From positions 8,389 to 72,388 of the forward strand of contig RFYP01000001.1 of assembly GCA_009921175.1 (NCBI GenBank): 64,000 nucleotides of DNA, in the 5' to 3' direction. This DNA comes from Flavobacteriia bacterium (lineage in GTDB: Bacteria; Bacteroidota; Bacteroidia; Flavobacteriales; Flavobacteriaceae). The stretch's first letter is position 1, and the number at the start of each line of letters is the position of its first letter. Of this stretch, positions 3,472 through 49,899 are shown in pieces. The position numbers were made by a program, and so were the translations under genes. The notes under the pieces are model-generated. The model was not told the origin of the DNA. It saw nothing but the letters and a program-made list of their open reading frames with translations, and did no database searches.

Positions 3472-4845
3472 CTAATACTTAAAGGGAATCAGCACCTTTT
3501 CTCCATCACGGCCCATAAACAAGATATTGTCCACGTCCTCCAGGGTGTAATTGGTGATTTTGTCCACGTCCTCCATTTTATTTTGGTTAATCTCCAAAAT
3601 ATAGTACCCCTCTTCTATGCCATAGCGAAGCAATCCCCGGTTTTGGTTACGGGTAATTTTTACGCCATAATCCAGGTTGAATTTTTTGCGTTCCTCTTCC
3701 TCGAGATTTTGAAGTTCTAATCCAATAAAAAGGGCTCGCGATGTCTTTTCCAAGCGCACAGTGGTTTCTTTTTCAATGCCGATACGGATATATTTAACAT
3801 GGACCTTATCGCCAGGTCTTTTGCTGGAAAGATGGCCGGTGAGATCCGAGAATTTATTGATGTTAAATCCATCGACACTTTTGATAATGTCCTGAGGTTG
3901 AATACCCGCTTTGGCCGCACCCATTTCGGGTTCTACCGAAGAAACATAAAAACCTTCGGTTTCGACCACATTCAATTCACTAGCGATGTCGGCATTTAGC
4001 GCAGCACCCTGAACGCCCATCAGGCCTTTTTGTACATTGCCATATTCAAGAAGGTCTTCGAACACTTTACGGGCAATATTACTAGGTACGGCAAATGAAT
4101 AGCCTACAAAACCTCCCGTCAAGGAAGAAATGGCGGTATTGATACCTACCAATTCACCTTTTAGATTGACCAAGGCTCCGCCGCTATTTCCTTGGTTTAC
4201 GGCTGCATCGGTTTGAATAAAGAATTGATTTTTATCATCTCTAAGGTTTAAATCACGTGCTTTGGCACTGATTATTCCTGCGGTGACTGTCGCATTGAGG
4301 TTAAAGGGATTACCTACAGCCAGCACCCATTCTCCGATCTGGGCATTATCAGAATCACCAAAAGAAATGTATTCCAAGGGCTGGTCGCTGTCAATTTTTA
4401 AAACAGCGATATCGGTATAGGCATCCGATCCGATAAGGGTAGCGTTGTATTTTTTATTGTCATTGGTCGTTACCTCGATATCGGTTGCCGCTTCGATGAC
4501 ATGGTAGTTGGTGATGATATAACCGTCGGGCGATACGACCACCCCCGAACCGGTTCCAATTTTTTGAGGTGTACTATTACCATAAAAATTTCTTAGCCAA
4601 GACGATTGACTACCTCCGTAGGAGCTGATGTTTTTTACATGCACAACGCCATCAATGGTTTTGGCGGCAGCATCAATAAAGTCTGCATTTTCAAGGGTCG
4701 ATGGTGCAAGATACTTTACGGGGACCGTTTGAGGTGTGGTGAGTACTGCTTGAGGTTGAGGAGCATCTTGAAGGCTTTGATAGACAAAAACCGCGATAAA
4801 TCCGCTAAGGATGGAGCTGAGGATAAGTTGTAATTTTGACTTCAT
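3472..4845 (-). CDS. Periplasmic serine endoprotease, HtrA/DegP/DegQ family, with PDZ domains
   Basis: N-terminal signal/TM segment, trypsin-like catalytic motif GNSGGALVN, and a PDZ-like C-terminal half. Confidence 0.85.
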   Translation of the reverse strand: MKSKLQLILSSILSGFIAVFVYQSLQDAPQPQAVLTTPQTVPVKYLAPSTLENADFIDAAAKTIDGVVHVKNISSYGGSQSSWLRNFYGNSTPQKIGTGSGVVVSPDGYIITNYHVIEAATDIEVTTNDNKKYNATLIGSDAYTDIAVLKIDSDQPLEYISFGDSDNAQIGEWVLAVGNPFNLNATVTAGIISAKARDLNLRDDKNQFFIQTDAAVNQGNSGGALVNLKGELVGINTAISSLTGGFVGYSFAVPSNIARKVFEDLLEYGNVQKGLMGVQGAALNADIASELNVVETEGFYVSSVEPEMGAAKAGIQPQDIIKSVDGFNINKFSDLTGHLSSKRPGDKVHVKYIRIGIEKETTVRLEKTSRALFIGLELQNLEEEERKKFNLDYGVKITRNQNRGLLRYGIEEGYYILEINQNKMEDVDKITNYTLEDVDNILFMGRDGEKVLIPFKY

Positions 4846-46652: not shown

Positions 46653-47220
46653 TTTCTTTTTTCCCCAGGTCTTTCATCAATTGAGCCTCGTAATCCAATA
46701 AGGATTGCCATTTTTGTTGTACCACTTCTTCAGTTCCAAATTCCTTGGCCAGCTTTAAAAATAGGGTATAATGATGGGCTTCACTGATCATCAGTTTGCG
46801 GTAAAACTTTTGCAATTCGGGGTCTTTTAGTTTTTCAGACAAAAGCCTAAACCGCTCACAGCTTCTAGCTTCGATTAGGCCTGCTACCAACAATTTATGA
46901 ATCAAATGCGTGGTGCGCGACCCGCCTTTTGGAAAAAATTGATGCAACGCCCTGACATATTCGTCTTTGCGCTCTCTTCCCAGCACCAGCCCCCGTTTAC
47001 GAATAAGGTCGTGCACCATTTTAAAATGACTGATTTCTTCCTCGGCCAGGGCAATCATTTCGGTCACCAACGCACTGTGTTCGGGAAAACCAACAACGAT
47101 GGACAAGGCGGTACTCGCTGCTTTTTGTTCGCAATAGGCGTGGTCGGTCAGGATTTCACTGATGTTTTTTTCAACAATGTTTACCCAGCGTGGGTCGGTA
47201 GGTAGTTTGAGTCCAAGCAT
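46639..47220 (-). CDS. miaE: tRNA-(ms2io6A37)-hydroxylase, ferritin-like di-iron protein
   Basis: LPTDPRW, HAYCEQKAA and EE..H motifs. Length about 190 aa. Confidence 0.75.
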   Translation of the reverse strand: MLGLKLPTDPRWVNIVEKNISEILTDHAYCEQKAASTALSIVVGFPEHSALVTEMIALAEEEISHFKMVHDLIRKRGLVLGRERKDEYVRALHQFFPKGGSRTTHLIHKLLVAGLIEARSCERFRLLSEKLKDPELQKFYRKLMISEAHHYTLFLKLAKEFGTEEVVQQKWQSLLDYEAQLMKDLGKKETIHG

Positions 47221-47226
47221 AGTTTT

Positions 47227-47904
47227 TTAATGTTCTAATCCAAAAACTTCTTTAAGCCGCTGAAGCGATGGATTGGCGGTGGCTAATTTTTTAAATTTTT
47301 CTTCGGGGGTATAAACCAATTCTTCCTTTTTTTCCTGACTTATGGTGATCTCCATGTGGATAAAGTCATTTGCCAAACGTTTTCGTAAATAGGGGAGCAG
47401 TGTTTCCCCTTCCCGTTGCAGTTCCACTTTGTTGGTACCGTTGGGCACTACAAGCTTAAGGGTCTCATCCTCTAATTGAGGAATACAAAGTTCCATGACC
47501 GAGCCAATATTACTGGCCCCTTCTTTGAGTTTTTGTTGGGTATATTTTTTCCATTCCTCGACCAAATGTTTTTCGGAGATGGGCTGACGAATTGTTTTTT
47601 TGCTTTTTTGCTGATTACTCGCCAAGTCCTCCGCTTCTTTTTTGAGCTTAATGCTCGAAAGTGACCAGGCAGACACCCCCTCAGGCTTTGTCTTTAAGTC
47701 GATTTGGACGGGGGGTTCAGCGGTGGTTAGAGGCTGGGGCTCTTTCGCTACGACCGTGGTGACAGGTTTTGGCGTGGTGTATTCGGTAGTTGGAGTCTTT
47801 TCAAGGGGTTTAGGGTCGGGGGGTGCCGCAGTCTGAGGCTTGATTTCCTTGGTTGGAGAGCTTTCTTTAGCGGGTTGAAAGGCCGAGCTGGGGATTAAAT
47901 AGCC
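47227..47904 (-). CDS. dnaX: -1-frame continuation of dnaX (tau linker plus C-terminal domain)
   Basis: My hand translation shows this frame is open from the A10 run, through a 76-codon P/T/K/E-rich stretch, into track ORF 47227..47676. That ORF has only a GTG start and no independent start signals. Confidence 0.55.
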   Translation of the reverse strand, partial: GYLIPSSAFQPAKESSPTKEIKPQTAAPPDPKPLEKTPTTEYTTPKPVTTVVAKEPQPLTTAEPPVQIDLKTKPEGVSAWSLSSIKLKKEAEDLASNQQKSKKTIRQPISEKHLVEEWKKYTQQKLKEGASNIGSVMELCIPQLEDETLKLVVPNGTNKVELQREGETLLPYLRKRLANDFIHMEITISQEKKEELVYTPEEKFKKLATANPSLQRLKEVFGLEH

Positions 47905-47922
47905 TTTTTTTTTTCTCCCTCC
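47895..47922 (-). other. Candidate recoding cassette: GGAGGGAG + A10 (contains A AAA AAG in frame) + GCT ATT TAA
   Basis: The + strand has T10 at 47905-47914, CTCCCTCC at 47915-47922, and the 0-frame stop complement at 47895-47897. Confidence 0.6.
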
Positions 47923-48980
47923 TGGTGGTGGAGTGAGGCCAATTGCATCAAGCAGAGTTCAATCGACAGCCGTTTATGGGTGCTATTTTTGTAATTCAGG
48001 GCCGTTTCGTTGATGATTTGAAGGCCAGACAGTAGATGGGGCATGGCAAAGGCTTGGCTTTGGGTTTGATAGTTTTCTTTGCTCGCAGTGGACACCTCCA
48101 TCAGCGGTAAGGTTTGCGGGTCTTTGGCGACCAGCAAGGTCCGGTAGTGGTTGCCCAGGCCATCGATGAATTGACTTCCCTCAAAACCTTTGGACAAAAT
48201 ATCGTTGGCCAACACCAACAGACTCGGTATGTCTTTTTGTAAGATCAAATCGGTGAATTGGAAATAGGTTTCTGAATCGAGGATATTTAGATTGGCTGCA
48301 ACGTCGGTTGTAGTGAGGTTTTTTTGGGTAAAACTGACCATACGGTCAAAAATCGACAAGGCATCGCGCATGGCGCCGTCTGCTTTTACAGCAATCAATT
48401 GTAGGGCTTCGTCTTGATAGGGAATTCCCAATTGGTCGGCGATCTTGGCCAATGACTTTTTTAGGTCGTCTATCCCGATACGTTTAAAATCATATATCTG
48501 ACAGCGTGATAAGATGGTGGGGATGATTTTATGTTTTTCGGTGGTGGCTAGGATAAAAATAACGTGTTTAGGCGGTTCTTCCAGTGTCTTTAGAAAGGCA
48601 TTAAAGGCCGCCGAGGAGAGCATATGCACCTCGTCGATGATATAAACCTTGTGCGTGCCTACCTGAGGAGGGATACGCACCTGCTCGTTGAGTTGACGGA
48701 TATCATCAACCGAATTGTTGGAAGCAGCGTCTAATTCAAAAATATTAAAGGCAAAGTCACTGGTATGGGCCTCTGATTCAGATTGGCTGTTAATGGTTTT
48801 GGCCAGGATACGTGCACAGGAAGTTTTGCCCACCCCACGGGGTCCACAAAACAAGAGAGCCTGGGCCAATTGGTTTTGGGCTACTGCATGCTGGAGGGTC
48901 TGGGTAATCGCTTCTTGCCCGACCACTTCCTCAAAAGTTTGTGGACGAAAACGCAAAGCCGATACTTGGTAGGTTTCCAT
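47895..48980 (-). CDS. dnaX: DNA polymerase III clamp-loader subunit, 0-frame gamma-like product
   Basis: Walker A GPRGVGKTS, DEVHML, SRC motif (LSRCQ). Start moved to ATG (METYQVSALRFRPQ). Confidence 0.9.
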   Translation of the reverse strand: METYQVSALRFRPQTFEEVVGQEAITQTLQHAVAQNQLAQALLFCGPRGVGKTSCARILAKTINSQSESEAHTSDFAFNIFELDAASNNSVDDIRQLNEQVRIPPQVGTHKVYIIDEVHMLSSAAFNAFLKTLEEPPKHVIFILATTEKHKIIPTILSRCQIYDFKRIGIDDLKKSLAKIADQLGIPYQDEALQLIAVKADGAMRDALSIFDRMVSFTQKNLTTTDVAANLNILDSETYFQFTDLILQKDIPSLLVLANDILSKGFEGSQFIDGLGNHYRTLLVAKDPQTLPLMEVSTASKENYQTQSQAFAMPHLLSGLQIINETALNYKNSTHKRLSIELCLMQLASLHHQEGEKKKAI

Positions 48981-48986
48981 GTCAAA

Positions 48987-48994
48987 CAAATATA
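48987..48994 (-). promoter_or_regulatory. Possible -7 box TATATTTG only 6 nt upstream of the dnaX ATG
   Basis: The minus strand reads TATATTTG-TTTGAC-ATG. Confidence 0.3.
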
Positions 48995-49059
48995 CTTATA
49001 GCCTTGCGTTTATCCCGCTACACCCGTTAAAATTTAGACGAAAATTATCAACAATACCC

Positions 49060-49067
49060 TACCTTTG
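49060..49067 (+). promoter_or_regulatory. -7 box TACCTTTG upstream of rnpB
   Basis: Matches TAnnTTTG and ends 4 nt before the first P1 nucleotide. Confidence 0.5.
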
Positions 49068-49071
49068 CACC

Positions 49072-49364
49072 AGCAGGCTATCTTATCGCTGTCTCGAATT
49101 TCGAGGGGGAGGAAAGTCCGGACACCATAGAGCAGTATAGCGGGTAACACCCGCCCTTTCAGTCATGAAAGCGGACCAGTGCAACAGAAAGCAAGTACAG
49201 TTCGGCTGTAGTGAAATCGGTAAACTCTATACGGTGCAACGCCAAGTAAATTTGCGCTTGAGGGTGGCTCGCCCGATGCAAAAGGGTAGGCGGTTAGAAT
49301 CGTTTAGTAATAAACGATCCAGATAAATGATAAGACTCGACAGAATCCGGCTTATCGGCCTGCT
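49072..49364 (+). ncRNA. rnpB: RNase P RNA, bacterial type A
   Basis: Universal motifs GAGGAAAGTCCGGAC (P4 5' strand), GACCAGTGCAACAGAAAGCAA, GGTAAACTC and ACAGAATCCGGCTTATCGG. P1 pairing AGCAGGC/GCCTGCT. P2 pairing CTTATC/GATAAG. Confidence 0.9.
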
Positions 49365-49899
49365 ATTTTTTCTTAAAAATGCTAAACTGACAACTCCCGT
49401 ATTTTCGTTTTTGTATAAAATTAGGATGCGAGTCAAACTTATGATGGGTGTCATGTTCGGCAATAATCCACCCTTGATCTTCGAGGCAATTAACCAAAAG
49501 GTGATCGATAAGTATACTATATGATTCTTCAGTGTAAGAATAGGGTGGATCCATAAAAACTATAGTTTGGGGGTTGGAAAAACGTTCCAAAAACTTTTCA
49601 ACAGAAGAACAAAATGTTTCAATGGTCAGGTTAAGTTTTTTTTTGGTGGTTTCAATAAACTGAATACAATGTCGATTTTGATCCACAGCCAAAATCTGAG
49701 GCACACCTCGAGATGCAAATTCATAGCTAATGCTTCCGGTTCCGGCAAAGAGATCCAAAACCCGAATGTTTTCAAAATCAAATTCGTGTTGTAAAATATT
49801 AAACAAAGCCTCCTTGGCCCGGTCGGTGGTGGGTCTAACGGGCAGGTTTTTGGGAGCGAGCAGTCGACTTCCTTTATGTTGACCTGAAATGATACGCAT
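49363..49899 (-). CDS. rsmD: 16S rRNA (guanine966-N2)-methyltransferase
   Basis: MRIISG..KG N-terminus, DLFAGTGS and DPPY motifs. Confidence 0.85.
   Translation of the reverse strand: MRIISGQHKGSRLLAPKNLPVRPTTDRAKEALFNILQHEFDFENIRVLDLFAGTGSISYEFASRGVPQILAVDQNRHCIQFIETTKKKLNLTIETFCSSVEKFLERFSNPQTIVFMDPPYSYTEESYSILIDHLLVNCLEDQGWIIAEHDTHHKFDSHPNFIQKRKYGSCQFSIFKKK

Follow-up and report, generated by a model that had tools for sequence, protein, structure and literature searches.

How can a bacterium make the tau subunit of its clamp loader when the reading frame of dnaX closes two codons past a run of ten adenines and the rest of tau lies in another frame? The question is raised by a 64,000-nucleotide (nt) stretch of DNA from an uncultured marine or estuarine lineage of the Flavobacteriaceae (Flavobacteriia bacterium, GenBank assembly GCA_009921175.1, contig RFYP01000001.1, positions 8,389 to 72,388 of the forward strand), hereafter called the window, whose minus strand, read over positions 47100-49100, contains ...CAC CAC CAG GAG GGA GAA AAA AAA AAG GCT ATT TAA. 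The comparisons reported here indicate with high confidence that the split of dnaX is a genuine programmed recoding site and favour, with moderate confidence, slippage of the RNA polymerase on the A10 run as the main route to tau. Public gene calls divide the locus into a truncated dnaX and a hypothetical protein with DUF8439; the annotation proposed instead is one recoded dnaX giving gamma (361 amino acids, aa) and tau (584 aa), and an essential replisome subunit would rely here on non-standard decoding. The elements of the locus are the following.

47895-48980, minus strand: dnaX 0-frame open reading frame (ORF) including the stop, with its ATG at 48980, coding for a 361-aa gamma-like product (clamp-loader ATPase domains I-III)
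47905-47914, minus strand (T10 on the plus strand): A10 slippery run, coding for part of E-K-K-K; proposed site of RNA-polymerase slippage
47904-47910, minus strand: A_AAA_AAG heptamer, in phase with the 0 frame; possible site of a -1 ribosomal shift
47895-47897, minus strand: TAA closing the 0 frame two codons past the run, homologous to the conserved +1-frame TAA of relatives with in-frame tau
47915-47937, minus strand: predicted hairpin CUC-A-CUCC / ACCACCA / GGAG-G-GAG, adjoining the 5' end of the run, with GGAGGGAG as its 3' arm
47227-47904, minus strand: tau-specific extension in the -1 frame, 225 codons plus stop, through which the full-length NF011531 match passes
47878-47901, minus strand: tau-frame motif YLIPSSAF (pattern [YF][IL]IPxx[YF]F), starting one codon past the run and kept in every polarity class
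47674-47868, minus strand: linker rich in Pro, Thr, Lys and Glu, predicted to be disordered (predicted local distance difference test, pLDDT, below 50 at extension residues 13-77)
47230-47664, minus strand: folded C-terminal domain PF28557 / DUF8439, read as the tau-specific domain from a precomputed Pfam assignment and pLDDT

An earlier note on this DNA, made from the letters alone, had placed the run, the stop, the 361-aa frame from ATG 48980 and the in-phase heptamer at these positions, and all of them were reproduced; its estimate of about 585 aa for a fused tau agrees with the 584 aa computed here. The -1 frame is open from the A10 run to the stop at 47227-47229. When the run length was changed in silico, A11 (or a -1 shift) gave a single 584-aa ORF ending at 47227, and A9 or A12 gave products of 370 or 371 aa; counted from the end of the run, the 0-frame stop lies two codons and the +1-frame stop 11 codons downstream. 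The 0 frame encodes the gamma-like form and tau needs the -1 frame or an extra A, the reverse of the polarity in Escherichia coli and Thermus, as had already been recognized. The junction peptide ...QEGEKKKGYLIPSSAF would be expected alike from slippage and from ribosomal -1 shifting, and the products of A9 and A12 transcripts would be expected to end in ...GEKK(K)RLFNPQLGLSTR.

Domain searches uphold both the initial identification of the gene as dnaX and the view that its 0 frame holds the clamp-loader core only. Specifically, the Pfam domains of the N-terminal ORF (DNA_pol3_delta2, AAA, DNAX_ATPase_lid and DNA_pol3_gamma3) all lie inside residues 21-352, and residues 1-583 of the fused 584-aa product align to the NCBIfam equivalog model NF011531 ('DNA polymerase III subunit gamma/tau'), covering positions 1-612 of its 614, with a score of 655 bits, slightly below the 685 cut-off; full-length DnaX and the split gene are therefore collinear. 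A search of the fused protein against a local copy of Pfam matched no model in the C-terminal part, and PF28557 was taken from precomputed tables, where it is present on the downstream ORF and on fused relatives. A protein search with the tau-specific part, restricted by a word filter, gave two clusters. In the predicted structure of the 225-aa extension, the disordered linker is followed by a confidently folded alpha/beta domain (pLDDT above 90 at residues 111-190). Foldseek returned nothing at E <= 0.001; its best matches, at E = 0.03-0.8, were DnaA domain I (4tps_D, target template-modelling score 0.69), DciA and E. coli tau C-terminal chains (5fku_E, 2aya), which are suggestive of a module like tau domain V and compatible with it, short of proof. 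A search of PDB sequences with the C-terminal domain gave spurious matches only.

These data bear on the possibility that there is no recoding at all, the C-terminal domain being made separately from GTG 47676 (149 aa) and acting in trans, or the gene being in decay. Gene callers do give a separate ORF of 132-149 aa that carries PF28557. However, the frame stays open over the 76 codons from the run to the GTG, as the earlier note had found by hand translation; no start codon occurs in that stretch, and the conserved [YF][IL]IPxx[YF]F motif sits in it, right past the run. The motif lies 1-4 codons past the run in every polarity class (GYLIPSSAF in the window), and its conservation there means that translation follows the -1 frame from the run on. 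All five linker substitutions that separate the window from one related strain (L081) are nonsynonymous in the tau frame, and those in the C-terminal domain are mostly synonymous (3/5 in the -1 frame). The split is, moreover, kept across a deep clade in an essential gene, and separate expression or decay is judged very unlikely. As a side observation, this motif may serve for interaction where the tau linker begins.

The A10 in dnaX is the longest homopolymer of the window and its sole A/T run of at least ten. Rarity by chance was dropped as an argument for it, because dinucleotide-preserving shuffles expect 4.35 such runs per 64 kb against the one observed; A/T9 runs are not enriched in the window, and A/T runs of 9-10 are, if anything, depleted relative to the shuffles. 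The run is notable through its position and conservation and not through its count.

Its length could still have been misread, and a homopolymer miscount, in which the true genome carries A11 and one continuous ORF, had been among the explanations first put forward. An A11 would indeed restore one 584-aa ORF, and A11 does occur in one contig of the species cluster and in a few contigs of a relative at 71% amino-acid identity (L091). Against this, 38 blocks of public assemblies index a product identical to the 361-aa one (23 contigs read), and all six fetched loci, from five Joint Genome Institute samples and one ENA sample, carry A10 in an identical context; these six assemblies are independent, with 13 differences from the window over the gene and 5-9 among themselves over 7-kb loci. 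The cluster at 90% identity has 27 distinct members; among the 15 that are listed, 13 are of 361 aa, one of 584 aa and one of 360 aa. The 584-aa member (P0130 / L093) is a single 6.6-kb contig with A11, differing at 19 positions, to be set against dozens of contigs with the 361-aa form, and the 360-aa variant (L094-L096), 4% divergent, again has A10. An exact look-up of the hypothetical A9, A11 and A12 products of the window found none. Furthermore, A10 is the consensus length of the family: the window is out of frame relative to its in-frame relatives because the spacer from run to TAA differs (7 nt in the window, 14 nt in the in-frame genes), and not because of the run length. With the split found in every member of the clade as well (12/12, see below), a miscount or assembly error is contradicted from several sides and is extremely unlikely; the genome truly carries A10.

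The relatives supply the alignment that the note had called for. The comparison set consists of 80 fetched dnaX loci of Flavobacteriaceae whose products share 63-69% of their amino acids with that of the window; the window itself brings the number of sites to 81. A run of at least ten A's is present at the homologous codon in 76 of the 80 loci (77/81 sites with the window), usually as GATGGAG-A10. In 60 of the 80, tau is read straight through the run, with the polarity of Thermus (products of 521-686 aa; A10 in 55 loci, A11 in five); the others are split. A neighbour-joining tree built on the DnaX N-terminal domains groups the window with L002, L009, L020, L001, L003, L004, L005, L007, L045, L022 and L026; all 12 members of this group are split, and tau lies in the -1 frame in 11 of them. 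The remaining 69 loci are mostly in frame, with sporadic split tips (L011, L069, L078, L017, L013, L042, L043, L052). Altogether, about eight independent tip lineages have flipped through indels in the spacer or in the run length: four to the -1 frame, three to the +1 frame, and the A12 locus L078. Closer relatives outside this set, found by a protein search, show the same behaviour; one at 80% identity to the window (P0004 / L092) has A10 followed by GGCTATC and TAA. On these sequence comparisons, what is conserved at the site is the run, its polarity being labile, and the split in the clade of the window is ancient and functional.

Two side observations concern individual runs. The member of the group of the window whose tau lies in the +1 frame, L009, has A10 and needs one A fewer or two more. 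Moreover, a Winogradskyella contig (L062) ends inside its run, after at least 13 A's, as if the assembly had broken at the homopolymer.

Closely related alleles of both kinds also occur. Relatives at 71% identity to the window carry either A10 (358 aa, L087-L090) or A11 (579 aa, L091), and the two kinds differ at only 2% of nucleotides; split A10 and fused A11 dnaX alleles are thus seen to coexist at 1-2% divergence, and the species cluster of the window holds one A11 contig and dozens with A10. The coexistence of such alleles in near-identical lineages is what would be expected of a DNA-level switch resembling phase variation, in which slippage during replication would move the run between A10 and A11 and so leave some genomes of the population able to encode tau. 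Yet every cell needs tau, so a minority allele cannot rescue the cells with A10, and A10 is overwhelmingly dominant. A switch of this type is highly improbable. Both proteins can be made at this site whichever polarity it has, and the coexisting A10 and A11 alleles are better explained as a by-product that is tolerated there.

Which machinery, then, changes the frame? The earlier note had named both RNA-polymerase slippage and ribosomal -1 shifting, and the two are indeed the live hypotheses. A/T runs of at least nine are documented high-efficiency slippage sites for bacterial RNA polymerases, and slippage is proven for Thermus dnaX (PMC1088944, PMC5009743); transcriptional realignment was proposed by Antonov et al. 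2013 for two-ORF dnaX genes with A10 (PMC3711429). The hallmark of slippage is seen in the frames that are not used for tau in the 60 in-frame relatives: the -1 frame is closed 0-2 codons past the run in 59 of them, and the +1 frame is closed at codon 4 in 57. This +1-frame TAA is made via the Ile codon ATA (the first Ile of IIP), which is used in 57/57 of the Ile cases against a background of 24% of Ile codons. Selection of stops in both alternative frames has been described for Thermus dnaX (PMC5009743, PMC1088944). A -1 ribosomal shift would need no +1-frame stop, which is useful only where transcripts with -1 or +2 bases are common; closure of both frames therefore favours slippage. In addition, lineages with tau in the +1 frame and variants with A10, A11 and A12 are viable, which fits a mechanism that fills all three frames. 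That slippage takes place in the organism of the window, how efficient it is there and what the hairpin does are inferred.

The proposed mechanism would operate as follows. Faithful transcripts would yield the 361-aa gamma-like subunit, ending at the TAA two codons past the run. On the A10:T10 tract, which has the length of the entire RNA-DNA hybrid, the polymerase would slip and produce a mixture of mRNAs, and those with one extra A (also those with -2 or +4) would bring the 225 downstream codons in frame and give the 584-aa tau, which gains the linker, the [YF][IL]IP motif and the C-terminal domain. A nascent-RNA hairpin would form right behind the run, in a terminator-like geometry with an A tract replacing the U tract, and would probably pause the polymerase or shorten the hybrid, and in this way tune slippage. 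Ribosomal -1 shifting on A_AAA_AAG may add to the tau output.

The hairpin of the window has seven base pairs and one A.G mismatch (-7.6 kcal/mol), and reads CUC-A-CUCC-ACCACCA-GGAG-G-GAG-A10 where the consensus is CUCUAUCA-CUUU-UGAUGGAG-A10. Among 77 loci, its 3' arm ends no more than 1 nt from the run in 90%; its free energy averages -7.8 kcal/mol, and as a rule no other 30-nt segment of dnaX is as stable. Recoding the same peptide with synonymous codons gives less stable structures (mean z = -2.3; p <= 0.05 in 80% of loci). In the alignment, pairing takes in 77.6% of cells and drops to 37-58% once the partner columns are slid, and none of 500 shuffles matched the observed percentage paired, the covariation score or the number of cells changed on both sides. 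The stems persist across differing peptides (SITFDG, SVLTKDG, SILLNTDG, SLKEAE, SLHHQEG). Within the species or genus cluster of the window, variants of the hairpin region, a 3-nt deletion of a His codon and a C-to-A change, hit the loop only and leave the stems unchanged; they are found at the following positions.

L094-L096, about 1255-1275, and L093, about 3545-3565: loop variants of the hairpin upstream of the run

From this analysis, the hairpin would promote realignment by pausing the polymerase or shortening the hybrid. The earlier note had taken GGAGGGAG for a Shine-Dalgarno (SD)-like stimulator of the E. coli kind. That it adjoins the run is correct; as a stimulator it was rejected, because it ends 4 nt before the heptamer and Bacteroidia ribosomes sequester their anti-SD (PMC10798248), and it is better read as the 3' arm of the hairpin.

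Several points weigh against slippage as the main source of tau. At its end stands A_AAA_AAG, of all -1 heptamers the one best known from bacteria. Where tau requires the -1 frame, a G follows the run in 13 of 14 loci, compared with 16 of the 61 in-frame loci, a bias that hints at a ribosomal contribution or at an effect of the 3' context on the polymerase. A sister clade inside the group of the window has lost the run and uses G_GGA_AAR or G_GAA_AAR followed by TAA, so that -1 shifting by the ribosomes of this lineage is probably able to provide tau. As for the hairpin, it is statistically indistinguishable in the window alone (p = 0.13 against synonymous recodings, z = -0.26 in a second test) and is strong only at the family level, where the compared sequences are related and the shuffle statistics overstate their independence; split loci without it also exist (L002, L020).

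The sister clade, a large one with products of 354 aa, deserves description of its own. Its heptamers are G_GGA_AAA in L003, G_GGA_AAG in L005 and G_GAA_AAR in L001 and L004, with TAA directly after them, and tau continues in the -1 frame as ..GK[VI]N[RQ]FIIP..; at least 60 protein clusters share the ending ...HF[GE][EG]K. The site is located as follows.

L001, L003, L004 and L005, about 4050-4075 (0-frame stop at 4063): run-less heptamer site in marine Flavobacteriaceae dnaX

Judged by its sequences, this clade almost certainly depends on the ribosome for tau. Together with the in-phase heptamer and the G after the run in the window and its like, these canonical heptamers with their stop lend weight to the idea that tau in the window, too, comes mainly from a programmed -1 shift of the ribosome on A_AAA_AAG, with slippage minor or incidental; a reversed dnaX whose signals resemble those of E. 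coli is also noted for Chlorobium phaeobacteroides by Atkins et al. 2016 (PMC5009743). The stimulators that such a shift would be expected to have, however, are lacking or misplaced. Over the 100 nt folded 3' of the run there is no stem-loop, the minimum free energy being -12.2 kcal/mol where shuffles average -15.3 (z = +1.16), so that this stretch folds worse than its shuffles, in line with the earlier inspection by eye; the SD-like element stands 4 nt from the heptamer and not 10-14; and the anti-SD of Bacteroidia is occluded, with prfB frameshifting at only about 7% in Flavobacterium johnsoniae (PMC10798248). Seven nucleotides are enough for a ribosome, yet A10 is conserved, and the relatives select stops in both alternative frames. 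Finally, tau in the +1 frame is tolerated (L009, L042, L043, L052), and a -1 shift cannot serve those loci. Ribosomal shifting is, on balance, the less likely of the two as the main source, and transcriptional slippage is the preferred explanation for the window.

Beyond this preference lies a broader proposal, offered tentatively as possible rather than probable: that selection keeps the terminator-like hairpin, set exactly the A10 length of the hybrid away from the polymerase active site, as a means of tuning slippage, that slippage would then be efficient enough for the gene to flip freely between tau in frame and gamma in frame, and that one abundant marine clade has swapped the run for G_GGA_AAR plus a stop. 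If true, the family would form a natural series that connects recoding in transcription with recoding in translation for one essential gene. The natural variants (both polarities, A10 and A11, hairpin variants and the clade with run-less heptamers) could be used to measure the tuning of slippage and its exchange with ribosomal frameshifting.

Other features of the window were recorded alongside. Divergent from dnaX, a full-length bacterial class A RNase P RNA (RF00010, 205.9 bits) lies at 49070-49370 on the plus strand. An L19-Flavobacteria ribosomal protein leader (RF03130) at 2633-2658 on the minus strand is borderline, its 31.7 bits barely exceeding the gathering score of 31.5. Another long run, of A9, is found at 49636-49644 on the minus strand and falls at the C-terminal KKK of a 178-aa methyltransferase-like ORF (49363-49899), where slippage would alter the last few residues only. 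No tRNA genes were found within the 64 kb.

The arrangement of the window has close counterparts among known systems. Although its novelty had been implied by the earlier note, A10 two-ORF dnaX with recoded tau was already described by Antonov et al. 2013, who listed 17 two-ORF dnaX genes from 12 genera (GeneTack cluster COF_239165634), nine of them with A10, including those of F. johnsoniae, F. psychrophilum, Cytophaga hutchinsonii, Chlorobium species and Coraliomargarita (PMC3711429); the reversed two-ORF dnaX was repeated by Atkins et al. 2016 and Sharma et al. 2014 (PMC5009743, PMC4066793). The core phenomenon was thus published in 2013, and the window adds a member and not a principle. 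In this set from Bacteroidetes, Chlorobi and Verrucomicrobia, as in the window, the N-terminal ORF ends just past the poly-A, tau needs a -1 change and a G follows the run; the window likewise has an upstream ORF with domains I-III, a tau-homologous ORF in the -1 frame and a conserved poly-A junction, with A10 where the set has 7-10 A's. It differs in belonging to a lineage outside the set and in its run-to-stop spacer of 7 nt, and the hairpin and the family-wide flipping of polarity are not described in that paper. The literature searched, whose coverage is incomplete, gave no account of a conserved hairpin, of the ATA-enforced closure of both frames, of the frequency of polarity flips or of a clade with run-less heptamer and stop, and these traits (the last with G_GGA_AAR), as they appear from the sequences, are possibly new.

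The -1 cassette of E. coli dnaX shares with the window the A_AAA_AAG heptamer, an upstream sequence containing AGGGAG and a stop soon past the site. Its polarity is the opposite, its SD-like element lies about 10 nt from the heptamer and not 4 nt, and it has a 3' stem-loop that the window lacks; a single tRNA-Lys(UUU) with weak decoding of AAG also belongs to the E. coli type. The run of the window is, in turn, 3 nt longer than a ribosome needs, and the ribosomes of its lineage hide their anti-SD. Thermus thermophilus dnaX (Larsen et al. 2000 via PMC1088944, PMC5009743) has an A run after GAGGGAG and before a G, nearby stops and two products, as does the window, and its polarity is exactly that of most relatives of the window. 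It differs in having A9 with tau in the 0 frame, so that slippage makes gamma; in the window, an A/T run of at least nine is present and stops stand near the run in the non-tau frames, but the run is A10, the 0 frame gives gamma, tau is not in the 0 frame, and slippage would make tau. Lastly, in the literature searched, the only precedent for slippage stimulated by a hairpin is the stem-loop of Roseiflexus IS630 (Penno et al. 2015 via PMC5009743), where a nascent-RNA hairpin stands directly 5' of the slippage motif in a terminator-like arrangement, as the predicted one of the window would. There, however, the motif is a heteropolymeric T5C5 and one base is deleted, whereas the window has a homopolymer of a kind that slips unaided and its tau would need an insertion.

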